A DNA stretch of 64,000 nucleotides, taken from Candidatus Omnitrophota bacterium (GTDB lineage Bacteria; Omnitrophota; Gorgyraeia; 2-02-FULL-51-18; JAGOUK01). The notes below the pieces were generated by a model. That model did no database searches. It was given only the letters and a program-made list of their open reading frames with translations, and was not told where the DNA came from. The stretch is taken from contig JBLINS010000002.1 in assembly GCA_047639455.1 (NCBI GenBank), forward strand, positions 226-64,225, written 5' to 3'. This document shows positions 3,001 to 41,174 of this stretch, piece after piece; the first letter of the stretch is position 1, and every line of letters begins with the position of its first letter. Both the position numbers and the translations under genes were made by a program.

Positions 3001-6000
3001 GAGCACATGCATTGGCTCCGCAATCGGACTCAGGTAATTCGAATGGTGGCCAAATTACTTATTTAAGAGTTTCGCCAGAATTATTAACACGCCATGATTT
3101 TGAAGAGTCGAGGCCCCGCGTTGCGATTGCTTTTCAATCCATTGAACACACACCCATTGAAGAGGTATTGAGCACGCTATACCATGTGGGTGAGGATGAC
3201 TTAGAAATGCTGTGGGTAGTTGTTCCATGGGATTCAGATAATGCTTTTGAACGTCGCCAAATGATGCAGCACTTGGATGCCGATGTCGCGATAGCCCAGT
3301 TTGGCATTGATTATTTGAAAGGTGACTTAGACGACGTCGACTTTATCCAAGCATTGAATCGAATCCAGCAAGGATTAAATTCGTTTGGATTAGATGATGA
3401 GCGAGCTCAGCGCTTTGAGTCAGACATAGCGTCAATTGAGCTTGATCGCATTGAACAGGAACTCAGCGCATTACAAATTCAATTGTCAGTTTATTTGATT
3501 CCTAAGAGAGATGCTTATAGAGAACGATATAAGCCGATTACTGCTTATTCAGCGAATGCTTTTTCTGATAGGCGGGAAATACGAAAATCGTTTAGAAAGT
3601 TTGGCTTCGATGTCTCAAAAATTGAGCGTATTCAAAACGGCGACGATTCTAGTCTATTTATTGTACGAGCCAAAAAAGGCGCGGAACATAACCGTCTTTT
3701 GTATGAGGGTGATGTAGTCCAATCAGAACCGCTGACTGTACCTGACTATGCAAAACTTGTTAAGCTGCCCTCGTTTCAAATAGCAGCCCAGACTAGCCCT
3801 CCAACACTGGGGGAAAGTTCTCCTGATCCAGTTCAAGATCTTCCGCAAAAGCTTAGACGGGTGAAGTCCTTGACTATTAAAAAAGCTGATCCAATCTTAA
3901 GTGCGGACGAAGAAAGGGCTTTGCGAGGTGTGTGGCCTAATGTATTTGACGTTAACGTCAAAAATTCCAAATTAATTCAATTGTCTCAATTGGGGTTTGA
4001 GGTTTTTGTTGGAGGCAAGATTGAATTAATGAAAATGTTTTCGTCAAACTTACATAAGAATAAAATTTTTAAACAGATCAATCGTGCTGATGTGAATCGC
4101 TTAGAAAATGCGATACAAAACGTAATTGATAATTTAAGACAACATAGAGGGGACGTACCTAGAGGTCTAGAGCGAGGGCTGATTGGAGTGCGTATTGTGA
4201 ATAAAGAAGGTACCCCGTATTTACAATTCGTTTATTTGGATAATGGGCCAGGATTTGTTAATAAGGATAGCCGATCGAGAGTCCCGATATCCATAGCAGT
4301 TATTCAAGGTGAGCCTGGAGACTCACTTGGTGGCAAGGGTACAGGATTTTTGGGAGTCGGAACAACAGTCGTTGTGGGCGCAGCCGATAATATAACTTAC
4401 CGCGAGTACCACAAGAGTGAATCTTTAGAAAGCTATGAAGGATTCGAATGGAGTAAGCGCACTCAATCGGATGATGTTGTCAAAATATTTCATGATGCTG
4501 AATTACCTGTTCAAAAGAGTTTCTCAGGCGTCCAAATAATTTGGGAGGTTCAGTCTCGATTTGTTGATGGTGTGGAGCTTGAAGTTGAGGTTGATAGCGG
4601 ATCAGTTGAAGTGGCCGAGAAAAGAGTTGAAGAATTGACTGGTGGTGCAGCAGAAGCTAGCCTTCTTTCGGAAACACCCTCGCAACGTCAATCTCGACAT
4701 CAAAGATTTCGAGATAGCTTAATAAGAATGGAGATTGCTCCAGCTAAAGCTGCATTAATTGTAAATTTTATTGAGAGTGAATATATTTCGCACTTTCCTT
4801 GGTCGGTCCCATTAAAATCAATCGATTCTTTTCTGGAGCAATATATTCTCAAATTCTATTCAAATAGTTTAAGCACCTTCGTTGATGATCTGGGAGAAGT
4901 GGAGCTTCGCGAATATATTGAATCTGAAGTTGAGAAAAGTGTTTATGGAGAGGACGAGTCGGGTGACTCAATGGCTGCAAGGACGGCTGCGCCGCGTGAG
5001 GCCGAGGGCGAGAATCGGCAAGTTGTGGAGAGGGCATTGGATAGCGTGAGAAACTTGGAAGGTGTGGAAGTCATTGTCGGTGGTGTGAAGGGGGATATTG
5101 CAAGTGGGGATAAAGATGTTTTGGATATAGTCGATGAGCGTGGCTACGTTATAGAGCCTTCTCAGAAGGCAATGCAAAAGGAAGTCCATGCTCAAGGTCT
5201 TTGGCATCGTGTGGCGCATGTATATGTATTTACTCCGGACGGTCGATTGATTTTGCAAAGAAGATCTTTAGCCAAGCCTTTGTCTCCAGGCAAATTGCAA
5301 GTGTCCGCAAGTGGACGCGTGAATGCCGGAGAGTCTGCATTGGACGCTGTCCTCCGCGAAACTGAGGAAGAATTAGGCATTAACTTCTGGCCTGAAGAAT
5401 TGATTCGCATAGGCAAAGAAAATGGACTTAGACGATCGTATGATATTTCTGGTGGGGGTGCGAATAATGAATTCATCACAAGTTACGCAGTTAAACTGTC
5501 GAGTTCAGCCCAAGTAGATCAAATATCCAAAAAGTATAATTTATTAGAAACCCAAGATCTCTGGATTCTGCCTTGGGATACATTTGTGTCGACTGTAAAA
5601 AATGACAAAGACAAATCCATTTTTTCTAATAGCCTTCACGGACTTATTCACAACCCAGAATTATTGCAACAATTAACCGAGAGCCAATCGGACATGGATT
5701 CGACGAGCGGAGGGAGCTCTTTAGATGAAGATCGTGATGTTGGTGGGGTGCGGATGAGTCGGGAGGTTGAGCCGGATAGATTTTTATATCCTATGGCAGG
5801 AACATTATTTATGCAGCCAAGAGATTCAAAACGTGTGGATAAAAATTCATATGATGGTCAGTTTAGGAATGTGGGGCTAAACTTATTAGCAAACTCCGCG
5901 AATCCTATTTCAGGGTTAATTGATCAAGAGATAAAAACTAAAGGTCATATTATTGTGGCCGATATTGGAGCAGGCCGTCAATTGGCGCTAATGGAAGCCA

Positions 6001-7697
6001 AACAAGAATTTGGAGACCAGATCACGACAGTGGCAGTGGACGTGGAGAATCATTTAGAAAGGTTGCAGCCTGATTATATAAGCAATGTCGGCAAGAGGTT
6101 GGGCGTAGAATTGGACGAAACCCATCGCCCTGATTTTATACTTGCACCTTCGCGATCTGTTAAATTCAATGAACCACCAGACATCATTCTCGCTATACGG
6201 TCACTGCCATATGAAGAGGATCCGATGCTTGGATTTGAGAATCTATATAATCAATTAGCGGTTGATGGCACGTTCGTTGCCAGGTATTACCCTGATTTGC
6301 TCAAAAATTTTGATCCTTCAGGAAAAAGCAATTTTGATGAGCCTGATTGGCTATTTAAAGCGTTAACAGAATTAAAATCTAAAGGATTAATTGCCGGGGA
6401 ATTTAGAGCAGGCTTTGTTTTTATTAAAAAAATGTCAGCTAAACAAATCCGTATTAATTTGGAACGCGATGAAACGCGTATTAAAGTTCACCGAACCCAG
6501 CACAATAGCCTTGTTCGTGGAGATTATAAAATCACAGATGGCCATGAAGAGCTGGTGACTATCATTGATGATTCTAATCCACCAGGCGATGCTCCTAAAG
6601 GTGAGGCTAGGATGGCCAATCGAATTACGTCATTTTTAGATGACGAACTTGTCACGCAACATTTTGTAGATAGTTTAAAAGACTATAGTAATGCGGGCTC
6701 CGGGGATGAATTGCCAATATTCTTATATGGACTTTATTTGCAGCGGAATAAGTTCGACGGTAGGCATACGCTGCCATTAGGCTCAAGTCTCATAACACCT
6801 AAGGCGCTTCGTGATGAAAACGGAGAAATTACTTTATATTTAATGCCGGTGGGCACGCCGCTTGATCTTAGCCCGGAAGAAACCATGCTTAGCTCCATAT
6901 TCTTTGTCAAACTTAATGATGCTAGAGACCTTGTCCAAAGCTACCAGCATGATACAAAAGTTTTAGAGCAGAAATATGTACAAGGGAGTGCCGTGGCATA
7001 TCAATTAGAGCTTCGTTCAGCCCGACGAGATTTTGTTAATGATAAGCTTGGGTCAAAGGTATTTTCTTCTAAACGAACTGTGCCTAAAGCCGTTCATATT
7101 TTGGAATCCGCTTATAGTGCTGATATGGATGCCTTAGACATAGAGCAGCAACTGGATTTATTAATCCCTACATTGAAGCATATACATCAAGCGGCTCCTG
7201 AAGTGACTTTTTATTTGGACAAACGTTTTGCCCAACGCAGTTCAAGGGTTGAATACCTATTGAATAAATATAAAGTGAATGATTTTATTCACATTGGTGA
7301 CCCAATTGAATTAGCCGTGATCACGCTTGGTTCACTAGAAGCGGGTATTGGTATTCATATCGACATCAACCCAATTGAGGCTGATGAAATTCCTATGGGT
7401 TTGGCGAGCGCTCTATACCAAGGTATTGTTGAGGCAACTGCCTTAGTTGATATAGGCACACAAAAAATCGATTTTGATATAGTCGATGAAGCGGTTATTA
7501 GCGAATTAAGGCGCAGGCGCAATCAATACCTTAAAGATTCTATAGACGATAATATAACTTATTTACGTATATTAAGCGGCACGGCTCCCAAATCGTTGCG
7601 TCAAAAATTCCTATGGAGTATTGCTCAACAAATCCCCATTGAATTCATCATCCAGGCCGCGCAACGCACCATTAAATATGTGCAGAGATCTACTTAG
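3..7697 (+). CDS. Giant multidomain protein, 5'-partial (more than 2564 aa). It shares an N-terminal module with the second giant ORF and has kinase-like, GHKL-ATPase-like, NUDIX and SAM-methyltransferase-like motifs.
   Basis: Single uninterrupted ORF from the window edge to 7697. Translated motifs: HGFYHPGN...IHDLD (nt ~1290-1385), DNGPGF and GxGTGFLGVG (nt ~4238-4362), perfect Nudix box GRVNAGESALDAVLRETEEELGI (nt ~5309-5377), IVADIGAGRQ (nt ~5950-5977). aa ~125-170 are clearly homologous to aa ~485-530 of ORF 33741..41081. Confidence 0.75.
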   Translation: MSELAALDSEVLYSLARTQDEQSLWLLSDNLKLLTNLIDFKLQSEDYTQIISRKDVFDITKIAGFMNQKILELKDYQEKALFLKNDFKDIIKSAQKFYELTLTRDQAFIQNAIKKIEADDNEASIMITGGYHTPNLKKQLKAQNMSFISLTPTVTHETNRPLYEELLLNQSVRITSPNNANSMSLLPVRMTNSPLSFSTLAGELNVDVLSSLIESSRMADYVGEFDDGKTMKAGTRAYSFEGGLGELNKEYWNMLNEEDQVNIHILLSQNAANEENKRSYVYELIHPFKWNRIMITEVQIKGFYVNQSQTPESHAGRGNVTANLFGPSNPDPEGGLTQKGAVNEHRIATQFYADHKPLNGTFLKVPLGWGTFPNINYKDQPLGFVIMGTPKFMTRRMKVEDMIFGKILDGLYLNGLGLRDLHNSGIGHGFYHPGNMSYNLIDTPSSTADVNLAGIHDLDSAFWLEEKATQNKTTVERIIMADLIYALVQLVDLSADIKRMDESGLINAKTIIDAFLEGYFAYLDDDEHIDEVVNNSARIFVDYYDFHVTQMRILKRDSDKVLAFLPTYQKFISTQTDLRLINLAEKIIGLYLGARLSARTPSTNPISDQTINQAPNPFGVRMAEDEDLNLFGQMAKYYWEEHFPSSVQWHVAGTLGALAAMDIDEIRSMNMETFLYKLGDSLKIKAVILDKDNRRQIMDAYEAKFGVAFEDMDTLVKNIYTDVTGPEEPNAAALWQLKHYVQAIRSNMHDALNSTTISLDLFGHIEIIMSMRKSPYKKELLDYMQGVGDILTSHFDIQPGVETYIVFNRDMMIQQHMWQKSIGVVMFAQRIAQNLHELDDAFEYHYRLSGPEVIKLELLFAFALGGQEFVEETIHLQRRLHQRLRRSYDGSNETVSLEDVFRSAQKGELLKEFGITPFVDGRAIQWSNYWAKVQADDWESSQREDWGRVKSLALDVISSKEDGNPLPTLVLGGSRDQFEALSLMQSLPDSSLAHVMQASRAHALAPQSDSGNSNGGQITYLRVSPELLTRHDFEESRPRVAIAFQSIEHTPIEEVLSTLYHVGEDDLEMLWVVVPWDSDNAFERRQMMQHLDADVAIAQFGIDYLKGDLDDVDFIQALNRIQQGLNSFGLDDERAQRFESDIASIELDRIEQELSALQIQLSVYLIPKRDAYRERYKPITAYSANAFSDRREIRKSFRKFGFDVSKIERIQNGDDSSLFIVRAKKGAEHNRLLYEGDVVQSEPLTVPDYAKLVKLPSFQIAAQTSPPTLGESSPDPVQDLPQKLRRVKSLTIKKADPILSADEERALRGVWPNVFDVNVKNSKLIQLSQLGFEVFVGGKIELMKMFSSNLHKNKIFKQINRADVNRLENAIQNVIDNLRQHRGDVPRGLERGLIGVRIVNKEGTPYLQFVYLDNGPGFVNKDSRSRVPISIAVIQGEPGDSLGGKGTGFLGVGTTVVVGAADNITYREYHKSESLESYEGFEWSKRTQSDDVVKIFHDAELPVQKSFSGVQIIWEVQSRFVDGVELEVEVDSGSVEVAEKRVEELTGGAAEASLLSETPSQRQSRHQRFRDSLIRMEIAPAKAALIVNFIESEYISHFPWSVPLKSIDSFLEQYILKFYSNSLSTFVDDLGEVELREYIESEVEKSVYGEDESGDSMAARTAAPREAEGENRQVVERALDSVRNLEGVEVIVGGVKGDIASGDKDVLDIVDERGYVIEPSQKAMQKEVHAQGLWHRVAHVYVFTPDGRLILQRRSLAKPLSPGKLQVSASGRVNAGESALDAVLRETEEELGINFWPEELIRIGKENGLRRSYDISGGGANNEFITSYAVKLSSSAQVDQISKKYNLLETQDLWILPWDTFVSTVKNDKDKSIFSNSLHGLIHNPELLQQLTESQSDMDSTSGGSSLDEDRDVGGVRMSREVEPDRFLYPMAGTLFMQPRDSKRVDKNSYDGQFRNVGLNLLANSANPISGLIDQEIKTKGHIIVADIGAGRQLALMEAKQEFGDQITTVAVDVENHLERLQPDYISNVGKRLGVELDETHRPDFILAPSRSVKFNEPPDIILAIRSLPYEEDPMLGFENLYNQLAVDGTFVARYYPDLLKNFDPSGKSNFDEPDWLFKALTELKSKGLIAGEFRAGFVFIKKMSAKQIRINLERDETRIKVHRTQHNSLVRGDYKITDGHEELVTIIDDSNPPGDAPKGEARMANRITSFLDDELVTQHFVDSLKDYSNAGSGDELPIFLYGLYLQRNKFDGRHTLPLGSSLITPKALRDENGEITLYLMPVGTPLDLSPEETMLSSIFFVKLNDARDLVQSYQHDTKVLEQKYVQGSAVAYQLELRSARRDFVNDKLGSKVFSSKRTVPKAVHILESAYSADMDALDIEQQLDLLIPTLKHIHQAAPEVTFYLDKRFAQRSSRVEYLLNKYKVNDFIHIGDPIELAVITLGSLEAGIGIHIDINPIEADEIPMGLASALYQGIVEATALVDIGTQKIDFDIVDEAVISELRRRRNQYLKDSIDDNITYLRILSGTAPKSLRQKFLWSIAQQIPIEFIIQAAQRTIKYVQRST
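5309..5377 (+). other. Nudix box (GX5EX7REUXEEXGU) embedded in the giant ORF
   Basis: The translation GRVNAGESALDAVLRETEEELGI fits the canonical Nudix signature exactly. The upstream ...WHRVAHVYVFTPDGRLILQRR... is typical of a Nudix fold beta-strand region. Confidence 0.7.
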
Positions 7698-9811: not shown

Positions 9812-10114
9812 ATGCACAACTATTTAATTAAGAAATTCACATTGGGCTTTATGGCACTAATAATCGCTTTGACATTATTAGTCCATGGGCCATTAAATGC
9901 TGAGGAATTAGAAGATAGTGCCGAAGTAGGTAATTCTCAATTCATCGTACAAACGGTAACGCCTCCAAATCAGGCCCTAGTGTCTATACCCATGACATCC
10001 CAAGGCGCAGTCTTTACGAGCCAAGCTAATAGGCCAGATAAGGCTTATTGGTTAGATTATTACCACCAACTCCTCGCTGACTCCCAAAAACAAGACCAAA
10101 CCACCGCAGAGTAA
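9812..10114 (+). CDS. Small secreted hypothetical protein
   Basis: 100-aa ORF with a signal-peptide-like N-terminus. Confidence 0.4.
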   Translation: MHNYLIKKFTLGFMALIIALTLLVHGPLNAEELEDSAEVGNSQFIVQTVTPPNQALVSIPMTSQGAVFTSQANRPDKAYWLDYYHQLLADSQKQDQTTAE

Positions 10115-10155
10115 TTCCTAATATCTCAAGATTAGAGTTCCATCTGTGGAGGCAT

Positions 10156-10256
10156 GCGCGTCATCATGAGCTGCGCGGAGCAAGCAGCGTAATGATCTCC
10201 CAGAGAAACCTTTTGCTGTGGGATTGTCGCGCCTGCTGCGCGGCTCACAATGACTC
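10156..10256. repeat. Dispersed short repeat (family copy 1) with an internal imperfect inverted repeat
   Basis: The core GTCATCATGAGCTGCGCGGAGCAAGCAGCGTAATGATC ... CTGCTGCGCGGCTCA closely resembles 17655-17760 and is related to the elements at 22171-22260, 33575-33630 and 59495-59630. Confidence 0.5.
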
Positions 10257-10451
10257 TAATAGACTATTAGATAGTAAATTTCTCTTAACAAATACGATTA
10301 AAAAACCAGCACTTTTCAACCTTTATGCCCAGGATGACGAACGTCACTTACTCCGCGCTTGCCACAGATTGACAAGAGTTGGTAGTGTCGGCTCTAGTGG
10401 TACAATATCTTCTGGTTTAGAGAGTATTTATATCATTGGGAGAATAGCATT

Positions 10452-10682
10452 ATGACAGAATGGCAGAAGAGTCCTTTTAAGATAGAAGTTAAAAATGGTG
10501 ACACCAAGGCTTTTTGTTTATGTGGCGCTTCACAAAACGGGCCATATTGCGATGGGTCACACCAAGGCACGGATAAAAGACCAGAAGTCATTAAATTTGA
10601 TGAAGACAAAACCATTTTTGTTTGTGGTTGCCAAAAGTCTGCCAAAGTACCATTTTGCGATGGAACACATAGTCAGTCATAA
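10452..10682 (+). CDS. CDGSH iron-sulfur domain protein (two CDGSH-type motifs)
   Basis: The translation contains CxC...CDGSH and CxC...CDGTH, the two-domain mitoNEET-like arrangement. Confidence 0.7.
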   Translation: MTEWQKSPFKIEVKNGDTKAFCLCGASQNGPYCDGSHQGTDKRPEVIKFDEDKTIFVCGCQKSAKVPFCDGTHSQS

Positions 10683-10753
10683 GCAGTCTGAATTAAGGAG
10701 TACAGAATGGGCAACGGCAATCATACCAGAAACATTAGCGCGCTAATATTCTA

Positions 10754-11389
10754 ATGGAAACCCTATCCCAAAATGCCGCCATACTTTTGATTGGCTGGGC
10801 ATCAGGTATTAACCTATACTTAACAGTGGCCTTAACAGGCATTTGTGGTCGCATGGGTTGGCTAACTTTGCCAGATAGCATGGACATTGTTCAAAGCCCT
10901 GTCATTATTGGTATAGCTATATTGCTTTATGCGGTTGAATTCTGCGCGGACAAAATCCCTGTGGTTGATTCAGCCTGGGATTCTTTGCACACCATAATTA
11001 GGCCAGCAGGTGCTTTGGTTATGGGATTTTTGGCCGGCTCAGAATATGGCCCTATAGCCCAAACGGTGATTGGTTTATCCACGGGTGCTATAGCTTTGGA
11101 AACGCATACGTTTAAAGCCACTAGTCGAGCGGCCATTAATTTGTCGCCAGAGCCGGTCACAAATATAGCCGCTTCCGTGACTGAGGACGTGGCTGTTGTG
11201 AGTGCATTTTGGTTTTTTATGCAACACCCCATCATCACTTCAATTGTTTTAATATTAACCCTAATAGGCGCTTTTTTTGTCATTATCTCCTTATGGAAAT
11301 TTGTGGCGGGATTATTTGGCGGAAAAAAAATATCCCCCGACCAATCACGGGAATTACGGGACCAGGTCCCAGAGGGACAGGTCCAGTGA
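10754..11389 (+). CDS. DUF4126-like integral membrane protein
   Basis: Multi-TM hydrophobic ORF. The stop codon lies in the loop of the 11354-11434 palindrome. Confidence 0.55.
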   Translation: METLSQNAAILLIGWASGINLYLTVALTGICGRMGWLTLPDSMDIVQSPVIIGIAILLYAVEFCADKIPVVDSAWDSLHTIIRPAGALVMGFLAGSEYGPIAQTVIGLSTGAIALETHTFKATSRAAINLSPEPVTNIAASVTEDVAVVSAFWFFMQHPIITSIVLILTLIGAFFVIISLWKFVAGLFGGKKISPDQSRELRDQVPEGQVQ

Positions 11390-11934
11390 ATTCGGAAGCA
11401 ACCGGACCTGTCCCTCTGGGACCTGGTCCCGTAAAGGCTACTTTTGGAGCAGGTTGTTTTTGGGGTGTAGAAAAAATATATGCTAAATTAAACGGTGTTC
11501 AAACCACATCCGTGGGTTATATTGGCGGCGCATCTGTTAATCCTAGTTATGAGGATATATGCACGGGCCGCACGGGACATGCTGAAGCAGTTCAAATAAC
11601 TTTTGATCCTCAAGTCATATCATATGGCGAATTGGTGAGTACTTTTTTTCAGTGGCATGACCCGACTACATTGAATCAACAGGGTCCGGACTGTGGATCA
11701 CAATACCGCTCCGCTATTTTTTATCATAATGAAGCGCAAAAAGAATATGCACATAAGGCCGTTGATTTATTAAATGCGACTAATATTTATCAAGCCCCTA
11801 TCACTACTCAAATTGAGGCGGCGCCCGAATTCTATTTAGCCGAAGACTATCACCAAGCTTATTTAGTCAAAAACCCCATGGGGTATTGCTCACATCGTTT
11901 GCAATACCCAAAAGTTGCCCAAATACTGCCTTAA
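11293..11934 (+). CDS. msrA: Peptide methionine sulfoxide reductase MsrA
   Basis: The GCFWG active-site motif and the downstream MsrA-typical sequence are present. The only in-frame start is the ATG at 11293, so the Gly/Pro-rich N-terminal extension is encoded by the palindrome. Confidence 0.8.
   Translation: MEICGGIIWRKKNIPRPITGITGPGPRGTGPVNSEATGPVPLGPGPVKATFGAGCFWGVEKIYAKLNGVQTTSVGYIGGASVNPSYEDICTGRTGHAEAVQITFDPQVISYGELVSTFFQWHDPTTLNQQGPDCGSQYRSAIFYHNEAQKEYAHKAVDLLNATNIYQAPITTQIEAAPEFYLAEDYHQAYLVKNPMGYCSHRLQYPKVAQILP
11354..11434. repeat. Perfect inverted repeat (31-bp arms, 19-nt loop) inside the overlapping coding regions
   Basis: 11354-11384 (TTACGGGACCAGGTCCCAGAGGGACAGGTCC) is the exact reverse complement of 11404-11434. 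The arms contain nested GGACC-A-GGTCC sub-palindromes. Confidence 0.85.
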
Positions 11935-12290
11935 TGCTTCGAGAAATAATCGGTTATATATCGATATTTTTTGGCGCCATTTGGCTTCTTAAGCCAGAGT
12001 GGTTGCGCGGCCGTATGGGACGCAAAGCTAATCGAAGAATCACTTGGTCTTTTTATTTATTTTTGATTTATTTATCTATGAATTATTTGGGTTTATTATT
12101 CAGGTTTGAGTCAGGCTTGATTCGCTCTGTCGGTGTTTTGGGCTTATTTGTGGTTAATGCTAACTTGCTACGCACCAAATCCAAAGCTTCTACTAAATTA
12201 ATTGAATTATTCAAGACTTGTCCACTCATCCTATTTAGATGTGTGGCAGCCCTCGGCCTATTGTCTGGCCTCTGGATGATTTACGCTTAA
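11934..12290 (+). CDS. Hypothetical membrane protein
   Basis: ORF with hydrophobic segments. ATG overlaps the msrA stop (TAATG). Convergent with the glycosyltransferase gene. Confidence 0.35.
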   Translation: MLREIIGYISIFFGAIWLLKPEWLRGRMGRKANRRITWSFYLFLIYLSMNYLGLLFRFESGLIRSVGVLGLFVVNANLLRTKSKASTKLIELFKTCPLILFRCVAALGLLSGLWMIYA

Positions 12291-13573
12291 ATCTTTCCCG
12301 GCTGAGTGCAGTCTAAGTCTCTGTAAAACATTAGTAAATCAAATGCGCTTAGATTTTGTTCAGCTTTTTCGTATTGGATGGAATTCAGTAGGGTATTGGC
12401 AACGGTTTCAATGGGCATATTGGCATAATAATGATCTCGGGCATAATGTACGTATTTCAAAACTCTGAAGCCATTGAACCATCTAAAAAAACGCGACACA
12501 AAGCGTGCTAATGAAGTTGAATTTAATTTAATTTCATTCAAGCGTTTTTCAAATCCACCAGGCTCACTTTGGCCTAAAAAATCCTGAATACTTTTTGGCA
12601 TTGAATCAATCTCTAGAGATGCGCTTGAATTAATCTCCCACAAGTGAGGTATATACTCTAGAAAAGTTTTTAAATCATTGAATATTTGAGGGTTGTAGGT
12701 GCTATAAACTTTTTGAGTGCTATCTAGCCATTGCTGAATGGCTTTGCCGGTACCAAAGGGAACTCGATGCGATGGGCGGCTCGATGGATAAATGGTTGTA
12801 GCGACGATATTCCTGAATTTGCCTAATGGGATGAGTTTGTGCAAAAAATAAAAATCTTCACCGGCTTTGCGTTTATTCATACCACCTTCAGATAAATAAC
12901 GTTTGGCAGTCACAGCCATACATGATCCTAAGGTGTGGTAAGCATGGGGATGCCCAGCATAAATTAGACCCCGAATATAATAGCGCAAAAATAATTCATA
13001 ATTAATAATGCCCACATATTCAGCTTCAGGCAAATCTCGTGTTAATGGATGTTCAAAATAAATGCTAGCGGCTTGACAGGCTTTGGACCCATTAAAACTA
13101 TGCTGAACCGCTTGAATGTAATTAGTCTGCACCTCACAGTCTGCATCCAAATTTAGGATAATTCCGTCCGGATGTTGAACAGAGCAAAGTCTTTGAGCGG
13201 CCAAATCCATGCCAATTTTTCGAGCCAAGCCGACACCAGCATCATTGACAGGCATTCGAGTCGCATCCAGACAATAGAATTTGAGTTGGTCATGCGTTTG
13301 GGCGGATGCCCACTTCAGGGCTGAGAGATAGGTATTGTGATTGTTTTTTTGAATATCAATGTTGTCGTCAACCGAATCATTAAGCACCACAAATACTTCT
13401 ACTAGTCCGCTAAAAGTTAGATTACGTGCAAGTGAGTCCAGAGTGCGAATGAGATTCACCTCATCATAACAGGGGATGATAATACATGTGTTCAGAGCTT
13501 CATCAGGGGCTTGTAATTGGGGTTCCATGCGCCGAATAAAGGTTTTTGTATTCAATATTGCCTGCGCACGCAT
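12287..13573 (-). CDS. Family-2 glycosyltransferase
   Basis: N-terminal GT-A fold signatures (IIIPCYDE..., VVLNDSVDDN, LDADCEV DxD-type motif). Confidence 0.7.
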   Translation of the reverse strand: MRAQAILNTKTFIRRMEPQLQAPDEALNTCIIIPCYDEVNLIRTLDSLARNLTFSGLVEVFVVLNDSVDDNIDIQKNNHNTYLSALKWASAQTHDQLKFYCLDATRMPVNDAGVGLARKIGMDLAAQRLCSVQHPDGIILNLDADCEVQTNYIQAVQHSFNGSKACQAASIYFEHPLTRDLPEAEYVGIINYELFLRYYIRGLIYAGHPHAYHTLGSCMAVTAKRYLSEGGMNKRKAGEDFYFLHKLIPLGKFRNIVATTIYPSSRPSHRVPFGTGKAIQQWLDSTQKVYSTYNPQIFNDLKTFLEYIPHLWEINSSASLEIDSMPKSIQDFLGQSEPGGFEKRLNEIKLNSTSLARFVSRFFRWFNGFRVLKYVHYARDHYYANMPIETVANTLLNSIQYEKAEQNLSAFDLLMFYRDLDCTQPGKI

Positions 13574-13603
13574 TATGATATAATTAACTTAGGGGTTGAG
13601 ATT

Positions 13604-13942
13604 ATGAGTTTATTTAAGGCAGTAATCCAAATTGTTTTAATCATAGTTATGAGCAGTTTAGCATATGCTGATCCACTCACAGGTAGAGATTGGCTAGCTT
13701 TGAATCCCGCAACCCAAAATCAACAGATACAGAATTTGGCTAAAGATGCACACCAAAATGGCATGCCGTTATCCAAAGATTATCGCGAATACACCCAGTT
13801 GATCCAATCGTATTTGACGGAAGACGAATTTTTGGCTGAGGACGGCTTGAACAATATATTTTTAGACGTTATTTATGAATTTGAGCCAAATTGCCGCGAT
13901 GCCATTGACCTAATACGAATGCCTACTTGGGGCAAAAGCTAA
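13604..13942 (+). CDS. Small secreted hypothetical protein
   Basis: In-frame ATG at 13604 preceded by AGGGG. Signal peptide MSLFKAVIQIVLIIVMSSLAYA. Confidence 0.4.
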   Translation: MSLFKAVIQIVLIIVMSSLAYADPLTGRDWLALNPATQNQQIQNLAKDAHQNGMPLSKDYREYTQLIQSYLTEDEFLAEDGLNNIFLDVIYEFEPNCRDAIDLIRMPTWGKS

Positions 13943-13945
13943 TCC

Positions 13946-14365
13946 ATGCACAAAATAATAATAATCGCCGTAGCTTTTATTTCAATGCTTTGTATAACTT
14001 CACTTAATACGCAAGCAAAAACCACCTTGGGAGGTAAGATTATTTCTCCCAATGACGTGGTCCAAAGCATAGAATGGACTAAAGCTGAATTAGGCCAAGA
14101 TATAGCCAAGCGAGACTTATTCATCAATAGCGTCTGCAGCCATCATATTATTCGTTTGAGCAAAAGTGAAGCGCCTCATACCCACCCCAATCGTGATTTG
14201 AGCATTATTATCCTAAGTGGTGCAGTTCATATGCATTATGGAGATAGAAAGATAGTTGCTAGACAAGGCGACGTTATCATTATTCCGCATGGTGAGGAAC
14301 ATTGGGCTGAAGTAGCAGCGAATAAAATTGCAGTTGCCTATGCTATTTTTACTCAAGCTGAATAA
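13946..14365 (+). CDS. Cupin-domain protein, secreted/periplasmic
   Basis: Signal peptide plus cupin motifs (HTHPNRDLSIIILSG ... GDVIIIPHGEEHWAE). Confidence 0.6.
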   Translation: MHKIIIIAVAFISMLCITSLNTQAKTTLGGKIISPNDVVQSIEWTKAELGQDIAKRDLFINSVCSHHIIRLSKSEAPHTHPNRDLSIIILSGAVHMHYGDRKIVARQGDVIIIPHGEEHWAEVAANKIAVAYAIFTQAE

Positions 14366-14386
14366 TATAGCTCACATTTAGCTGAA

Positions 14387-14402
14387 TGTGATCTATGTCA
14401 CA
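14387..14402. promoter_or_regulatory. CRP/FNR-type binding site TGTGA-N6-TCACA (TGTGATCTATGTCACA), ~90 bp upstream of the hemerythrin gene
   Basis: Perfect match to the CRP-family half-site consensus with 6-bp spacing. It overlaps a second inverted repeat, TCACATT-N6-AATGTGA (14372-14391). An identical 16-mer in reverse complement lies at 16164-16179. Confidence 0.6.
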
Positions 14403-14488
14403 GCATTTACTTCTCTCCTCAGGTATCATCTAATCAAGGTCATTAATACGATTTTTGAAAATGAGGCTTAGTTTGTTTAGGGGGTAGT

Positions 14489-14905
14489 ATGAAAAAAGAA
14501 ATCCATTGGAAGTTATCTTATTCAGTGGGAGTACTTGATTTAGACGTGCATCATCAAGGCTTGATTGAATATATGAATATATTAGATAATGCTGAGAATT
14601 ATAAACAGGATTTGGATGAAATGATATTGAAGACACTAAATGATTTGAGTCGCTATACTCAGTATCACTTCGATCAAGAAGAAAGTTATATGCGACGTCA
14701 TGATTACCCGGGCTTGAATGAGCATCTAGAGGAACACGCGCTTTTTAAGAATGAAATCGAGAACTTTAGTGTGGCCTACAAATTAGGGGATAAAGAAATA
14801 GCGCTTAAGGTAGCTAGTTTTTTAAAGACTTGGTTTATTAAACACATACTCACTATAGACAAGCAATACTCTGACTATTATAAGGAGCGCGGGATAAGCG
14901 TTTAG
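14489..14905 (+). CDS. Bacterial hemerythrin
   Basis: Hemerythrin iron-ligand pattern (W..SVG...DLDVHHQGL; HFDQEESYM...YPGLNEHLEEH; WFIKHILTID). Confidence 0.8.
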   Translation: MKKEIHWKLSYSVGVLDLDVHHQGLIEYMNILDNAENYKQDLDEMILKTLNDLSRYTQYHFDQEESYMRRHDYPGLNEHLEEHALFKNEIENFSVAYKLGDKEIALKVASFLKTWFIKHILTIDKQYSDYYKERGISV

Positions 14906-14908
14906 TTT

Positions 14909-15334
14909 CTAGAGAGATTTGGAATAACGGAATTTCATAAAAGCGACTCCACCTGCCAAAACGACCCGCCAAGCTAATTCTATTTTGTCATTGAATTTGG
15001 GGTCAAATTCTTTAACTGTATCGACGAGTGTATCAAGCCATATGTCATAAAACCGTGGTTCAATATTCAGTTTTTTTGCATTGTGTAAAGTAGCAATATG
15101 CTCTAATGGCTCATCTATGGCTCGCGAGGAGAAGAGATTCATCATATACAAAAGAGAAGCATGTAGCATTTTTTCTTGCCTATGCATATCAGCATCTGTG
15201 AACTTAGCTTTAATTTCGGGTGATTGAGCTATAAACTTCTTATAAAATTGACCATAAAATGCGTGGCTATCTGTGCCCTGAACGCGTTCCAAGCTATCAT
15301 TGAATATTTCGTCTAACTGCATAACTAAAACCAC
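14909..15334 (-). CDS. Single-domain bacterial globin
   Basis: Globin-fold signature stretches (FYGQFYKKFIAQSPEIKAKF..., proximal-His-containing HIATLHNAKKLNIEPRFYDIW). Convergent with the hemerythrin gene. Confidence 0.65.
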   Translation of the reverse strand: MVLVMQLDEIFNDSLERVQGTDSHAFYGQFYKKFIAQSPEIKAKFTDADMHRQEKMLHASLLYMMNLFSSRAIDEPLEHIATLHNAKKLNIEPRFYDIWLDTLVDTVKEFDPKFNDKIELAWRVVLAGGVAFMKFRYSKSL

Positions 15335-15464
15335 CTTGTCTCATCATATAGTGTTTTATTGGCCTCAAATTTAAGCATTCATGATAACACAAAGCTTCAT
15401 TGCGTAACCCCGGTTTAAGCTAACTATGCCCACGACACAGATATTGCTGTACAATGCAGGTACT

Positions 15465-16139
15465 ATGATTAACTTTGAAGATATCCATTTATTTAAGGGC
15501 GTGAACCCAAAAGCGCTCAAAGCTTTGGAAGCCAAAGCTATGCTGAGGAGTTTTGATAAGGGGCAGATTCTGTTTCGTAAAGAGGATGCTTGTAAGAGCA
15601 TATATTTCATTCAAGCCGGTGCTGTCAAAGTTTATAACTTATCCACATCTGGGCGAGAGCAAATATTGCATCAAATGGGTCCTGGAGAGTCCTGTGCTTG
15701 CCATGCTGGCTGTGGTGCGCAAACATGCTCTTCTTCTGCCGAAGCGATTGAAGATACAAAGGCTTGGCGTATATGGGCTGGCGACTACTCTGCATTTATT
15801 GCGGCCAATCCCAATAGTTTAGGCCAATTATGTGATAGTTTTGCTGAGCGCATACGTTCGTATTCCACTTTAATTGACGACTTGTCTCTTAAAGATACAC
15901 GCCAACGTCTGATTCGCTTTTTATTGGATATGACGCGTGCAGCCAAAGGCGAGACAGTCTCTGATGCAGATTTGTCGCTTGAGTTCACCCGTGAAGAAAT
16001 AGCTCAGCGTTTGGGAACTACTCGAGAGACAGTTGCGCGTAATTTGTCACTTTTAAAAAGAGAGGGCTTTATTGAAGTCAAGCCGCGCCACATTCGCATT
16101 CTTGACGTTGAAGGCCTTAAGAATATAGATCCCGCCTAA
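15465..16139 (+). CDS. Crp/Fnr-family transcriptional regulator with an internal Cys cluster (C-x-C-x3-C-x4-C)
   Basis: cNMP-binding-domain motifs (FDKGQILFRKEDA...YFIQAGAVKVY) and a C-terminal HTH (REEIAQRLGTTRETVARNLSLLKREGFI). CACHAGCGAQTC cluster in the sensory domain. Confidence 0.8.
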   Translation: MINFEDIHLFKGVNPKALKALEAKAMLRSFDKGQILFRKEDACKSIYFIQAGAVKVYNLSTSGREQILHQMGPGESCACHAGCGAQTCSSSAEAIEDTKAWRIWAGDYSAFIAANPNSLGQLCDSFAERIRSYSTLIDDLSLKDTRQRLIRFLLDMTRAAKGETVSDADLSLEFTREEIAQRLGTTRETVARNLSLLKREGFIEVKPRHIRILDVEGLKNIDPA

Positions 16140-16163
16140 ATAATCCTCGCTGCAACCAATAAC

Positions 16164-16179
16164 TGTGACATAGATCACA
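16164..16179. promoter_or_regulatory. CRP/FNR-type binding site TGTGACATAGATCACA inside a 22-bp palindrome, AACTGTGACATAGATCACAGTT
   Basis: Perfect TGTGA-N6-TCACA. The core is the exact reverse complement of the 14387-14402 site. It lies ~45 bp upstream of ORF 16225. Confidence 0.6.
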
Positions 16180-16224
16180 GTTATTCTTAGCTATATCCCG
16201 CATACTATAAACAGAGACAGAAAG

Positions 16225-16551
16225 GTGTGTGATGTTATGTGGCAAAACCCAGTTCACAAAAAGGCCTATTGGATGTGCATTGATGAGGATTTTAAGAAAA
16301 TGCTCGCTCAATTGATGGTTGCCGAAAGAGATGAAGAATCTGATTTATTTCGTTTTGAATTACATTTGAGAGACGCCGCCGAAATGGCTGTTTTTTCTGC
16401 TGAAGAACAAAAGATTATACGCGACATATACAAAGAATTAATGGTCGACACTGCGCGACATGCTAAAACCATTTATAAGATTTGTGATTTATTGAATGCA
16501 TTATATGAGCGAGAGACAGGGGGTAAGTCGTGCGAGACGAAGAAATCTTAA
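16225..16551 (+). CDS. Hypothetical protein (first half of a possible split ferritin-like pair)
   Basis: ORF directly downstream of the CRP box. Overlaps the next ORF by 22 nt in a different frame. Confidence 0.4.
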   Translation: MCDVMWQNPVHKKAYWMCIDEDFKKMLAQLMVAERDEESDLFRFELHLRDAAEMAVFSAEEQKIIRDIYKELMVDTARHAKTIYKICDLLNALYERETGGKSCETKKS

Positions 16552-16775
16552 CCTTATGGGAACACAGATTCAAACAAATAGTCAAACTTGAAGTTGAATC
16601 TAGTCAAGAATACCAGCACTTACTTAAGCGTTTTTCGCATTTATTGGATGGCACCAAGGTTAGAAAAATTATTCAAAAAATTATTCATGATGAAGACAAG
16701 CACGTCGCAATGTCAAAAAAACTTTTTGATATTGTCAAAAATGAAAAGAAACGTAGGCTTGAAAAGACGGAATAG
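16530..16775 (+). CDS. Hypothetical protein with two ExxH motifs (ferritin/rubrerythrin-like half-site)
   Basis: GTG start preceded by AGGGGG. EYQH and EDKH motifs ~35 aa apart. Confidence 0.4.
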   Translation: MRDEEILTLWEHRFKQIVKLEVESSQEYQHLLKRFSHLLDGTKVRKIIQKIIHDEDKHVAMSKKLFDIVKNEKKRRLEKTE

Positions 16776-16790
16776 AGGCAGTTTGAGAAT

Positions 16791-17318
16791 ATGAGTAATC
16801 GATACGAATATATCAATCAGCTAGAGGGTTGTGGCACAGGCATGTTGACAGCAACAGCCCAATTGAATGAATTAATATTGCAATTAGACCCTTCTAAAGA
16901 AGACGAATTCATGCGTGGCTGTTTGCTAGATATTCAGGCGAGCCTTGCGCGACTAGTCAAAGATATGACTAATCACATCAAGTTGGAAGAAAATATTTTC
17001 TTTCCTTTTGTCTCTACACATATACCTCGCTTGGATATGAGCATCCATTTACTCAAATCAGAACATGGTGATATTTTTAATGAGTTAAGCTACTTAGACG
17101 ATGCATTAATCCGCGGACTCAAGTCATCGCAAGGTTGTGTGTCAGATGTATTTGATGAATTGCACAAAATTGCTGCATGTTTAATGAATATAGTTCGCCA
17201 TCATGTCAATATTGAATCAAGATCAATGCATATGGCCATATTCGCCTATTTAAAACCGCGCGAATTGAATCTATTAAACAAAAAGTTAGACGATTATTCA
17301 TTACAAATAAAAAGTTGA
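16791..17318 (+). CDS. Hemerythrin HHE cation-binding domain protein (RIC/ScdA-like)
   Basis: Pattern H..LEENIFFP ... EHGDI typical of the HHE domain. Confidence 0.55.
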   Translation: MSNRYEYINQLEGCGTGMLTATAQLNELILQLDPSKEDEFMRGCLLDIQASLARLVKDMTNHIKLEENIFFPFVSTHIPRLDMSIHLLKSEHGDIFNELSYLDDALIRGLKSSQGCVSDVFDELHKIAACLMNIVRHHVNIESRSMHMAIFAYLKPRELNLLNKKLDDYSLQIKS

Positions 17319-17384
17319 ACCGTGCGTGTCGAGTTTTGTGCGTCTAGTATCCATAAGAACCTCACTCACTCGGCCCGCTCGTAG

Positions 17385-17765
17385 CATAGACTCTTTATTC
17401 ATCGTCCACTCACCACCACTGCTCCGAGTGCCCCAGGATGACGGTCTTCTCTAATTTATAAATTCTAGACACATAGAATTATACGCTCTCGCATGGCTTC
17501 TCTCACAAGACCAGGTGTAAGGTGTCACGATTAAGGTAGCATCACCACCCTATGACACAATCATCACAAAGTGTTGGTCCTGGGCTTGTAATTATGCGCA
17601 ATAAAATGTGCTAAGTCTTAAAAATATAAAAAAACACTACCACGTCCTCAGCATGTCATCGTGAGCTGCGCGGAGCAAGCAGCGTGACGATCCCCCAGAA
17701 AAAGCTTTTGCTGGGAGATCCTTACGTCGCTTGCTCCGCGCGACTCAGGATAACGTTGTGACCTA
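17385..17765. repeat. Cluster of dispersed repeat elements (degenerate copy A of a longer element)
   Basis: The blocks CCACTGCTCCG...CAGGATGACGGTCTTCTCTAATTTATAAATTCTAGACACATAGAATTATAC, GACACAATCATCACAAAGTGT and GTCATCGTGAGCTGCGCGGAGCAAGCAGCGTGACGATC...ACGTCGCTTGCTCCGCGCGACTCAGGATAACG all recur at 18590-19060 and 10156-10256. Confidence 0.5.
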
Positions 17766-18047
17766 AATTGTGAAATATTGCACCAGGTCTCGTAAAATGT
17801 GTTTATGTGTGAAAGAAATAATTAGATAAGTTATGATTTGAGTATTTTGTTAACTTAGTTTGTGTTAAAAAATCAAAATACGGATTTATATTATCAATTG
17901 TATTGATTTTGAATCAAATAGTGTGGTATTTTCAATCTTCTGAGGGATAAAAAGACATTTATTCAAAATCAAGCATTGAACTAGGTATATTTCAGTATAT
18001 TTTAATATATTTTAGTATTATCTAAGATTAAAGAGGGCGGTATTGTA

Positions 18048-18578
18048 ATGGAAAAAAGAGATATTGAGAGAGAAGAGCGTATGTTTCAGATGATGGAGCG
18101 AATTGCTATGTCACTCGAAAAAGTTGTTGAGGGCCAAATGGCCGTGATTGAAGCTAGTAAAGAATTAGTTGATCGTAGGGCTGGGGTTGGGAGTCGACGT
18201 GCGATTTTAGAGGATAGACGTAGTCAAAGTGCGATTGATCGCCGTGCCGCTGAAGGTTTGCCGGCATTACCGCTTCAATCTAATGGCAATGGTAATAACG
18301 AAGCCTTAGAGGACCAAACAACTACGAGCAATGGCGCTTTTGAGCACCCTAGTGTATTAACTGCGACACAAGTAGCGCGCATGCTGAATACTTCTAAAGG
18401 CACTGTATATCTTTGGGTCAATCAAAACAAAATTCCTTTTATCAAAATTGGTGGCTCCATCCGTTTTCCTGAAGATGAAATTCATAGATGGATATCTAAT
18501 GGCACAGTTTTAGAAAAACCGTCTAGTAGTGCACGCCGCATCCAGAGAAGAACTTCCGAGAGCACCAACCCAGCATAG
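18048..18578 (+). CDS. Excisionase-family (HTH_17/MerR-like) DNA-binding protein with an N-terminal coiled-coil region
   Basis: C-terminal LTATQVARMLNTSKGTVYLWVNQNKIPFIKIGGSIRFPEDEIHRWI matches the excisionase-type HTH pattern. Confidence 0.6.
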   Translation: MEKRDIEREERMFQMMERIAMSLEKVVEGQMAVIEASKELVDRRAGVGSRRAILEDRRSQSAIDRRAAEGLPALPLQSNGNGNNEALEDQTTTSNGAFEHPSVLTATQVARMLNTSKGTVYLWVNQNKIPFIKIGGSIRFPEDEIHRWISNGTVLEKPSSSARRIQRRTSESTNPA

Positions 18579-18589
18579 ATTATCTCTTT

Positions 18590-19060
18590 AGCTCACCCGT
18601 CATCCTGGACACAATACTCACAAAGTGTGGGTTTTAGTGTTGGTTTTTTAAAAGCAGGTTGTAAGAATACTTGTCAGAAAGTAAATTAAGCACGTCATTG
18701 TGAGGAGCAATTACGACGGTGAGTGCCCGACGAATAAGGAGGGCTTGCTACGAACGGGCCGATTCGGTAAGGCCCTTGTAGATCCCACAGCAAAAGGCTT
18801 TCATAGCTACGCATGGATCCTGCTTTGCGGCTTCTGGGAGATCCTCATACCACTGCTCCGCGCCTGTCTGCCGACAGGTAGATGGTTCAGGACGACAGTC
18901 TTCCCCAATTCATAAATTCCAGACACACAGAATTGCACAAGAATGCTTTTAAGTTGATCAATGTTGACCTATTAAGAGTCTCTTCTGGGGGATCCTCACG
19001 CCTGGCAAACAGCGCCAGACTCAGGATGACGGGGCGGCCTAGTTCCGAAATATCTCATGT
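18590..19060. repeat. Cluster of dispersed repeat elements (degenerate copy B)
   Basis: Shares ~80-85% identical blocks with 17385-17765 (e.g. CAGGACGACAGTCTTCCCCAATTCATAAATTCCAGACACACAGAATTGCAC; GACACAATACTCACAAAGTGT). Contains the reverse complement of the GAAACCTTTTGCTGTGGG block of 10200-10220. Confidence 0.45.
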
Positions 19061-19320
19061 TGATGCATCTCACGACCACAAGATGGACTCAGCTCTTTTG
19101 TGCTGGAACTCCAGTCACACAAAACTTGACACACTCTCCACACGTTTAAGCTCACCACCCCCCCCAATAATAGAGCTTTAGTGAAATAATTAATGTTAAG
19201 CACTTGAAAATGATAAGAATTGCATGTATATTACTATAAAAGAGTTAAAAAGTAGTAAATTAGATATAATATATAAACAAAATAGTACAAATTTGACACA
19301 TTGAACGGAGGTAGGGAATT

Positions 19321-19560
19321 ATGAGCTCAATAAATAAACTTGGGAGTGATTTGATGAAGCTTAAGGAGATATCGGCATATATACACGTACACCCAATGAC
19401 GATTTATCGGCTCTTGAATAGCAGGAAATTGCCTGGGTTTAAGGTTGGCGGACAATGGCGGACTAAAAAGATAATTTTGGACGAATGGTTGCGAGATAAT
19501 TCCGAATTTGTAGAAATTGAAATCAAGGCGAATATGCGCTCTAAGAGCGTTAAAGCCTGA
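19321..19560 (+). CDS. Excisionase-family HTH DNA-binding protein (small)
   Basis: LKEISAYIHVHPMTIYRLLNSRKLPGFKVGGQWRTKKIILDEWL matches the HTH_17 pattern. GGAGG-like RBS upstream. Confidence 0.6.
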   Translation: MSSINKLGSDLMKLKEISAYIHVHPMTIYRLLNSRKLPGFKVGGQWRTKKIILDEWLRDNSEFVEIEIKANMRSKSVKA

Positions 19561-19571
19561 AGGAGAGAGAA

Positions 19572-19790
19572 ATGGAAGAGATTGATATGGCTAGATGCGG
19601 ATATTGCTTCAGTTTATTTGATGGTAAACAAGATGCTGATGAAGACGCGCTGCAAGTATGCGACGACTGTTCATTTGATTCTGATGCGAAGCTATTGCAT
19701 TTGGTTTGTGCTGAATGTGGCGTGCAATTAGAAGGTGTATCCGAAGACTATCGCTGCTCTCACTGTGGATCCTGGACAGCTGGACATTAG
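19572..19790 (+). CDS. Small cysteine-rich zinc-ribbon protein
   Basis: Four CxxC pairs (CGYC...CDDC...CAEC...CSHC). RBS AGGAGAGAG upstream. Confidence 0.45.
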   Translation: MEEIDMARCGYCFSLFDGKQDADEDALQVCDDCSFDSDAKLLHLVCAECGVQLEGVSEDYRCSHCGSWTAGH

Positions 19791-20007
19791 CTGGGATTCT
19801 AATGCATAGTTCCAACGCCTAGTAATCAGAAGCAGCATATTTATTCAATTAACCCAGCTAGTTCGTAGAGTCTTTCTAACTCTTGAATTTATGACTACAT
19901 ATACCCTAATGCTGGTACCCTCAAATCTTCGACCTTATTTCAGATAATTTGCTATAATCAAACTTAATATTTATATTTAATGATCAGTATGGTCGGGGAG
20001 AAGAATT

Positions 20008-21482: not shown

Positions 21483-21533
21483 GAACAAAAATAATGATAG
21501 TCACTAAAAAAATTAATGAATTGGAGTTCAGGG

Positions 21534-22170: not shown

Positions 22171-22260
22171 ACCACTCAGGTATCGTCATTGCGAGAAGCG
22201 CGTAGCAGCGCCGTGGCAATCTTAGACTTTTAAAACGAGATTACTTTGCTGACAATGACA
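22171..22260. repeat. Dispersed short repeat (family copy)
   Basis: GTCATTGCGAGAAGCGCGTAGCAGCGCCGTGGCAATCTTAG is near-identical to 33581-33622 and related to the 59600-59630 tail. Confidence 0.5.
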
Positions 22261-33048: not shown

Positions 33049-33072
33049 GTTATAAATTCAAAAATAAAAAAA

Positions 33073-33104
33073 CGCCGTAGAGACTCTCTACGGCGTTTTT
33101 TTTA
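33073..33104 (+). terminator. Rho-independent terminator downstream of the HU gene
   Basis: 10-bp perfect stem CGCCGTAGAG / CTCTACGGCG with a 3-nt loop, followed by TTTTTTTTT. An A-run precedes it, so it may work in both directions. Confidence 0.8.
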
Positions 33105-41081: not shown

Positions 41082-41174
41082 CCTACCCTAGCCCAACCAT
41101 TTTAACACCCCAGGGGTGTTAAAATGGTTGGGGTTTGAGCGAATAAATGTTGTAAATGTTGTACAATAGCCATC

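Follow-up and report, generated by a model that had tools for sequence, protein, structure and literature searches.

Introduction

How do two neighbouring genes come to share a perfect palindrome at the point where one ends and the next begins, and could such a palindrome govern how much of the second protein is made? This question is raised by an 81-bp GC-rich palindromic element (positions 11354–11434) at the boundary between a gene for a DUF4126 membrane protein and msrA, the gene for the oxidative-damage repair enzyme MsrA, in a metagenome-assembled genome (MAG) of a Candidatus Omnitrophota bacterium. The DNA analysed, hereafter the window, is a stretch of 64,000 nucleotides from contig JBLINS010000002.1 of assembly GCA_047639455.1; positions are counted from its first letter, and both genes are read from the plus strand.

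A sequence-only reading of this locus had taken the palindrome for an in-frame insertion of the kind represented by the Rickettsia palindromic elements (RPEs), translated in two frames within an overlap of the two genes, and had offered attenuation or translational coupling of msrA as an alternative. Our analysis points to a different kind of element, namely a short GC-rich palindromic DNA of the type formed by doublets of repetitive extragenic palindromes (REPs), which are described as REPINs or as bacterial interspersed mosaic elements (BIMEs), or else of the type of a miniature inverted-repeat transposable element (MITE). On this reading, which we consider about evenly poised between right and wrong, the element sits at the DUF4126/msrA boundary and both genes make use of it.

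Structure and composition of the palindrome

The element consists of two 31-nt arms (11354–11384 and 11404–11434) separated by a 19-nt loop (11385–11403; AGTGAATTCGGAAGCAACC). Exact complementarity of the arms had been noticed from the letters and was recovered both in a mismatch search, where 31 of 31 positions pair without mismatches or G-U pairs, and by an inverted-repeat scan, which returned the same pair. Further matches to the arms with up to three mismatches were found neither in the window nor in 100 dinucleotide-preserving shuffles. The left arm (TTACGGGACCAGGTCCCAGAGGGACAGGTCC) is laid out as TTAC, a sub-palindrome GGGACC-A-GGTCCC (11358–11370), AGA and a degenerate unit GGGAC-A-GGTCC (11374–11384). 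Nested sub-palindromes had also been described before, and they are indeed present, as 13-nt units GGGACC-W-GGTCCC with A or T at the centre; within the window this unit occurs only at 11358–11370 and 11418–11430. The whole element can be described as four hairpin units in an inverted arrangement, whose centres lie 15, 30 and 15 nt apart.

The composition of the element sets it apart from its surroundings. At 60.5% GC, compared with 40.6% on average across the window, it ranks within the top 0.25% of 81-nt windows, and each arm has a GC content of ~65% in this contig of 40.6% GC. Neither arm therefore resembles native coding sequence. The stability proposed for the hairpin was borne out by folding: the RNA fold of 141 nt around the element has an energy of -81.7 kcal/mol, compared with -43.2 ± 4.5 kcal/mol for shuffled sequences (z -8.6), and the DNA fold of the 81-mer has an energy of -40.8 kcal/mol (z -11.9).

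A stem of this stability invites comparison with transcription terminators. A run of T residues is absent from the plus strand after 11434, and a scan of positions 10000–12600 returned no plus-strand terminator. This lack of a U-tract 3' of the stem indicates that the element is not an intrinsic (Rho-independent) terminator. On the minus strand, at positions 11323–11353, a small stem (TTCCCGTGATTGGTCGGGGG) and a run of eight T residues come after the large hairpin; the T run is the complement of an A8 run on the plus strand. This is the only terminator-like site between 10000 and 12600, and antisense read-through from a convergent glycosyltransferase gene could be stopped there. No family in Rfam 15 reached its gathering threshold anywhere in the window, and the element was overlapped only by generic miRNA-hairpin matches far below threshold. 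An integron attC site was considered and rejected, there being no GTTRRRY core.

Perfect arms, a MAG source and a single copy are also what might be expected if the palindrome were a fold-back chimera introduced into the contig during assembly or amplification, and a sequencing or assembly error had been named as an observation that would overturn the sequence-only reading. We regard such an artefact as very improbable. The element is internal to a 65-kb contig and recurs identically in a separately assembled 22-kb JGI contig; the identity between the JGI and NCBI contigs extends over 6,636 bp around the element, with both contigs probably derived from the same reads. In addition, the flanking genes are intact and correctly phased, and the loop contains a canonical gene junction, GTGA.

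Gene ends and the start of msrA

The DUF4126 gene (10754–11389, plus strand) encodes 211 amino acids, with the Pfam domain at residues 10–177 followed by a C-terminal tail that is unconserved among homologues. Its frame runs into the palindrome as TTA CGG ... CAG TGA, so that the left arm provides the last 11 codons (LRDQVPEGQVQ) and the stop codon TGA (11387–11389) lies in the loop. The position of the stop in the loop had been recognized previously; the count of 13 codons given for the element's contribution is corrected here to 11. Selenocysteine read-through of this TGA was rejected because there is no SECIS-like stem (selenocysteine insertion sequence) at the right distance; to our knowledge DUF4126 is not a selenoprotein.

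The start of msrA can be placed in the same loop. A GTG codon at 11386–11388 is in frame with msrA and overlaps the DUF4126 stop by 4 nt, as GTGA (11386–11389), and the gene call of the source contig begins msrA at this codon, giving a product of 182 amino acids (11386–11934, plus strand). A Shine–Dalgarno (SD)-like motif, GAGGGA (11372–11377, plus strand), stands 8 nt 5' of the GTG and lies wholly within the 31-bp stem. Comparable motifs are found nearby, with GGGAGA located 8 nt before the ATG of the CDGSH gene at 10452 and AAGGAG preceding the ATG of a small upstream open reading frame (uORF) at 10707. Overlaps of stop and start codons by 1–8 nt are seen at eight other co-directional gene pairs in the window. 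Read from the GTG, the right arm (plus strand) encodes MsrA leader residues 7–16 (GPVPLGPGPV) together with the first base of the Lys-17 codon, and in the DUF4126 frame it ends with TAA. The loop holds, besides the GTGA overlap, an EcoRI-type GAATTC.

These assignments mean that the element covers the last 36 nt of the DUF4126 gene (11 codons and the stop) and, from the GTG, the first 49 nt of msrA. Its intercistronic placement is exact relative to the conserved domains of both proteins: by Pfam, the DUF4126 domain ends ~69 nt 5' of the element and the PMSR domain of MsrA starts at the palindrome's last base (~11434).

The sequence-only reading had argued that MsrA must initiate upstream of the element, at the ATG at 11293–11295 (plus strand), since no in-frame start was seen between the palindrome and the GCFWG active site. 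The msrA frame itself was read correctly, as ...TGPGPRGTGPVNSEATGPVPLGPGPV-KATFGAGCFWG; the GTG at 11386 was overlooked. The ATG has no SD motif (the sequence upstream is CTCCTT), and a start there would dual-code 93 nt across the last, conserved transmembrane helix of DUF4126. Given a normal GTGA junction and a contig in which such overlaps are usual, neither the 93-nt dual coding nor the ATG start is needed. By the logic of the sequence, GTG 11386 is most plausibly the msrA start, and the genes probably overlap by 4 nt, not by 93 nt. A caution for annotation follows from the probable position of the msrA start codon within a palindrome.

This placement of the start bears directly on the proposal of an RPE-like insertion read in two frames, in which MsrA would begin at ATG 11293 and carry the element as part of a Gly/Pro-rich N-terminal extension. 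From 11209 onwards the msrA frame runs through the element without a stop, the 81 bp correspond to 27 codons, four of the six frames were free of stops on direct reading, and in-frame fusions are known for RPEs (PMC10969869). We nevertheless find the proposal improbable. A GTG preceded by an SD-like motif and overlapping the previous stop is a normal junction, the alternative ATG is without an SD and imposes dual coding on a conserved helix, and nothing homologous to the extension occurs in 150 representative MsrA relatives. Moreover, the element is not internal to the DUF4126 gene and occurs once in the window. What survives of the earlier idea is the palindromic, repeat-like appearance of the DNA and its provision of codons to the unconserved ends of the genes; its description as an insertion internal to an open reading frame (ORF) does not, given a single 81-bp copy at a gene boundary. 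A collagen-like repeat was also considered and rejected, as a G-X-Y period is absent.

Homologues of the two proteins

Comparison with homologues showed that both coding contributions of the element fall where these proteins vary freely. The closest DUF4126 homologue is 61% identical, and C-terminal tails in this family, 0 to 29 residues long, show no conservation. For MsrA, the best relatives with a single domain are ~56% identical and have N-termini of 2 to ~90 residues, some with signal peptides; no counterpart of the Gly/Pro-rich segment was found among the 150 representative MsrA relatives. In the three nearest homologues with usable contigs msrA does not follow the DUF4126 gene, and there is no synteny. 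Public data contain no orthologous empty site. A peptide search with three-frame translations of the element gave no match, which is a weak negative because the same search missed the source's own proteins.

The homologues also bear on an unconventional explanation, in which a -1 frameshift or transcriptional slippage at the heptamer A_AAA_AAA (11323–11329) produces a fusion of DUF4126, linker and MsrA with the junction peptide LFGGKKNIPRPITG, the palindrome serving as stimulator and as source of the Gly/Pro-rich linker. The heptamer forms part of an A8 run (11323–11330, plus strand) and is correctly phased in the DUF4126 frame for a slippery X_XXY_YYZ site, a -1 shift there enters the msrA frame, which is open up to the domain, and a very stable hairpin lies downstream. 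The repeat element would then have created a regulated two-product locus, a recoding cassette from which some ribosomes make a membrane-tethered DUF4126-MsrA protein. Established -1 frameshift signals such as those of dnaX and IS911 have 5–9 nt between heptamer and structure, and here the stem begins 24 nt past the heptamer. Runs of eight A residues are common, with 16 on the plus strand of the window, a normal GTGA junction is present, and the positively charged C-terminal tail suggests a cytoplasmic end. Among the top relatives of DUF4126 and of MsrA there was no protein fusing the two; a query with the hypothetical fusion also found none, a weak negative given that this search missed the source's own DUF4126 and MsrA. 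The top long MsrA matches are MsrA-MsrA tandems, and others fuse MsrA to MsrB, SOUL or DCC1-like domains. Both the frameshift and the cassette built on it seem to us scarcely credible.

Origin of the element

We infer that the element was imported and is of repeat-family origin. Two observations make such an origin likelier than a home-grown one: the arms are GC-rich and built of a repeated palindromic unit, and a second palindromic repeat family is present in the window. This second family (GTCATCRTGAGCTGCGCGGAGCAAGCAGCGTRAYGATCYCCCAGARAAA...) is also GC-rich and is unrelated to the element. It has at least two full copies (10159–10250 and 17648–17761), which are 88% identical over 65 nt, and each of these is an imperfect, intergenic palindrome of ~100 bp. 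Partial copies occur at 18974–19001, 22181–22207 and 33576–33610, all copies lie in or near intergenic DNA, and one is located ~200 bp upstream of the CDGSH-DUF4126-msrA operon. The family has no match in Rfam.

Short hairpin units like those of the element act as REP-like repeats elsewhere. Bacillus alkalicola JCM 17098 has multi-copy, REP-like repeats in intergenic DNA that are built around the 13-nt hairpin GGGACCWGGTCCC; a stretch of 24 kb contains at least 10 copies, frequently paired as inverted doublets (27 nt apart), adjoining genes for DoxX paralogues, HisZ and HAD proteins. In MAGs of the Gaiellaceae and in similar metagenome contigs of 70% GC, a palindrome of ~31 bp, cTTTACGGGACCWGGTCCCGTAAAGAAg, recurs on the same core; in several soil contigs of 70% GC a conserved gene seems to take its final codons and its TAA stop from this motif. 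These cases show that 13-nt hairpin units can take on a REP-like form in Bacillus alkalicola and the Gaiellaceae. We rejected both sets of repeats as homologues of the Omnitrophota element, because only the 13-nt hairpin core is common to them. As nothing beyond this core is in common, it is most economical to suppose that a small GC-rich hairpin arose by convergence. The GGGACCWGGTCCC repeats have no Rfam match, and neither the core sequence nor GGGACCWGGTCCC was found in a literature search. No earlier account of repeats of this short palindromic type in Omnitrophota came to light.

Several results weigh against an imported, REP- or MITE-like element. There is one copy in 64 kb at up to three mismatches. 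The pattern of the full arm (GGGACCAGGTCCCNNNGGGACNGGTCC) had no matches in GTDB representative genomes or JGI metagenome contigs, BLASTN with positions 11340–11450 had none in plasmids and phages, and the element was not matched in IMG/VR. Membership of a repeat family is consequently unproven. A 17-mer from the arm (TTACGGGACCAGGTCCC, that is TTAC followed by GGGACCAGGTCCC) was found at 23 loci in GTDB representatives, at 32 in metagenome contigs and at no viral loci, numbers close to those expected by chance. Among the 25 window ORFs scanned against Pfam there was no transposase and no REP-associated tyrosine transposase (RAYT). Reconstruction of an empty site was also unsuccessful, as deletion of 81, 79 or 101 bp never restores a normal junction: removal of 81 bp leaves a gene overlap of ~100 nt, and removal of 79 bp (element plus TA duplication) fuses both ORFs. 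The likeness to the Bacillus and Gaiellaceae repeats amounts to a 6-nt half-site and palindromy and may reflect convergence. The element is perfect and overlaps two coding sequences, whereas REPINs are usually extragenic and imperfect. Finally, the GTG start and the coupling to which we now turn rest on sequence logic. The DNA collections searched contain neither the source genome nor close relatives, so that these negatives are poorly informative on how often the element occurs in that genome, and a density of one per 64 kb would be compatible with tens of copies in the genome as a whole.

The same results favour a local origin, whereby the palindrome was made in place by template-switch or fold-back replication (quasi-palindrome correction or inverted duplication), was kept as an RNA hairpin that regulates msrA, and belongs to no repeat family. 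Single occurrence in the window and the lack of matches in any collection searched would follow, arm identity of 31/31 is expected of recent copying at the DNA level, and the stop/start overlap in the loop looks as though the junction pre-existed. An in-situ copy should, however, keep native composition, and the arms are GC-rich relative to the flanking genes. A repeated palindromic unit in each arm would be unlikely for an arbitrary coding sequence (~1% by a rough estimate), and the genome carries other palindromic repeat families. We consider a local origin plausible, since no second copy is known, though less likely than the REP-doublet or MITE-like reading.

A model for coupled expression

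If the element is used by both genes as this reading proposes, translation of DUF4126 would run 11 codons into the left arm and stop at the loop TGA. Translation of msrA would initiate at the GTG that overlaps this stop, helped by the SD-like GAGGGA in the left arm, and its first 16 codons would form an unconserved leader that crosses the loop and the right arm before the conserved domain begins. As part of the operon mRNA, the stem of 31 bp (about -80 kcal/mol) would bury the msrA ribosome-binding site and block free 30S subunits. Before a ribosome on DUF4126 could arrive at the loop stop it would have to open the left arm, thereby exposing the GTG; on terminating it would cover the loop and could reinitiate at the GTG, 1 nt upstream. 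The output of MsrA would then be strictly tied to translation of DUF4126.

Coupling by termination and reinitiation has been documented for pairs of genes whose stop and start codons overlap (PMC6728339). With the stop/start overlap in the loop and the SD motif buried in the stem, a translational-coupling device is the better-fitting reading of the hairpin, and of the pair of roles formerly suggested as an alternative to insertion, attenuation or coupling, it is coupling that agrees better with sequence and folding. We infer on these grounds, and from the established principle that structure limits initiation, that MsrA synthesis is coupled to DUF4126 translation.

The stem may have further effects on the message. 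RNase III needs roughly two helical turns, which a 31-bp duplex exceeds, and intercistronic REPs are known barriers to 3' decay. The duplex could therefore be a target of RNase III or a barrier to 3'-exonucleases, either of which could shift the ratio of the two cistrons. MITE stems within mRNAs are RNase III substrates (PMC10969869).

The kind of element described here, a short palindromic, intercistronic and repeat-like DNA that affects neighbouring cistrons, is well known; what is unusual is the combination of perfect 31-bp arms, stop and start codons that both lie in the loop, and an Omnitrophota host. If our reading is correct, the locus is a clean natural example of a REP- or MITE-like palindrome that two adjacent genes have taken up into their coding ends, and expression of an enzyme repairing oxidative damage should thereby depend strictly on translation of an upstream membrane protein. 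It would add an example of short palindromic repeat elements in an uncultured phylum. No new class of mechanism is implied, and the value of the locus would be as a testable case in which translational coupling is enforced by a structure derived from repeat DNA.

Operon and genomic neighbourhood

The DUF4126/msrA junction is one of a chain. A CDGSH protein identified by Pfam (10452–10682, plus strand) precedes a uORF of 15 codons (10707–10754, plus strand; MGNGNHTRNISALIF), which has a strong AAGGAG SD and whose TAA overlaps the DUF4126 ATG as TAATG; the DUF4126 gene has no SD of its own. Downstream, an ORF of 118 amino acids without a Pfam match (11934–12290, plus strand) begins at an ATG that overlaps the msrA stop, again as TAATG, and is the last gene of the operon. 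The uORF, DUF4126, msrA and the 118-amino-acid ORF are thus chained by overlapping stop and start codons, and both junctions other than GTGA are TAATG. The 118-amino-acid ORF, ending at 12290, and a convergent family-2 glycosyltransferase gene on the minus strand, ending at 12287, share 4 nt at their 3' ends (12287–12290), which leaves no space for terminators between these genes.

The region 10452–22145 is rich in genes related to redox and oxygen, with a CDGSH Fe-S protein, MsrA, a cupin, two hemerythrins, a globin, a Crp/Fnr-type regulator and a nitroreductase. This gene set suggests that an oxidative-stress island surrounds the DUF4126-msrA element. Elsewhere in the window there are two giant ORFs, of 2,564 amino acids (3–7697, from the window edge) and 2,446 amino acids (33741–41081). 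The 93-nt gap after the latter contains a perfect palindrome with 20-nt arms (41092–41132; CCCAACCATTTTAACACCCC g GGGGTGTTAAAATGGTTGGG), which lacks a T-run and might serve as a hairpin for termination or stabilisation. A palindrome at 33061–33107 (AAAATAAAAAAACGCCGTAGAGA t TCTCTACGGCGTTTTTTTTATTT) resembles a bidirectional intrinsic terminator.

Comparison with known systems

In REPINs, inverted REP units with palindromic cores form doublets that fold into hairpins (Bertels & Rainey 2011, PMC3116915). The element has the same design, with two inverted short GC-rich units that have palindromic cores of their own and are joined by a spacer into one long hairpin, and it falls into a similar size range (~80–110 bp) and position, between the genes of an operon. 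Immediately before the hairpin stands a 5' tetranucleotide, TTAC, in the place that GTAG occupies in the REPs of E. coli. This comparison is one of anatomy, and sequence likeness to described REPs is not part of it. REPINs differ in being present in tens to hundreds of copies per genome, in extragenic DNA and with imperfect arms; here one perfect copy is found in 64 kb and overlaps the coding sequences of DUF4126 and msrA.

Like RPEs, the element is palindromic, is translated within host proteins and has most frames open, and RPEs are known to make in-frame fusions (PMC10969869). Size and host are different, since RPEs (Rickettsia families 1–10) measure ~100–150 bp, are multi-copy and are specific to Rickettsia, whereas this element is 81 bp long, single-copy in the window and from Omnitrophota. 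RPEs also lie inside ORFs, with host protein on both sides, and the present element forms the C-terminus of one protein and the N-terminus of the next.

With MITEs of the Correia and ERIC types the element shares terminal inverted repeats and long duplexes in mRNA, which in those systems can lead to cutting by RNase III or to altered stability or expression of cistrons (PMC10969869). Such MITEs belong to defined families with TA target-site duplications and many copies; here TA (or TTA/TAA) is the only candidate duplication, and it belongs to the palindrome itself.

Intercistronic REPs were reportedly described as mRNA stabilisers by Newbury et al. in 1987, at malE-malF and in a his transport operon. 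Our element likewise places a stable hairpin between cistrons, where it could guard the upstream mRNA from 3'-5' decay and set differential expression. The classical stabilisers lie in untranslated spacers, and here the 5' arm is translated, so that ribosomes would repeatedly melt the stem.

A functional parallel may be seen in coupled gene pairs (Huber et al. 2019, PMC6728339), with which the DUF4126/msrA junction shares a 4-nt GTGA overlap (11386–11389) and an SD-like motif in the upstream gene, GAGGGA, 8 nt before the start. As in structure-gated pairs, the downstream ribosome-binding site would be sequestered in a structure that the upstream ribosome must open. Such gating is found at the atpHA junction of E. 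coli. What distinguishes the present junction is the sequestering structure itself, which is a perfect 31-bp palindrome at the DNA level and not an evolved, imperfect RNA fold.

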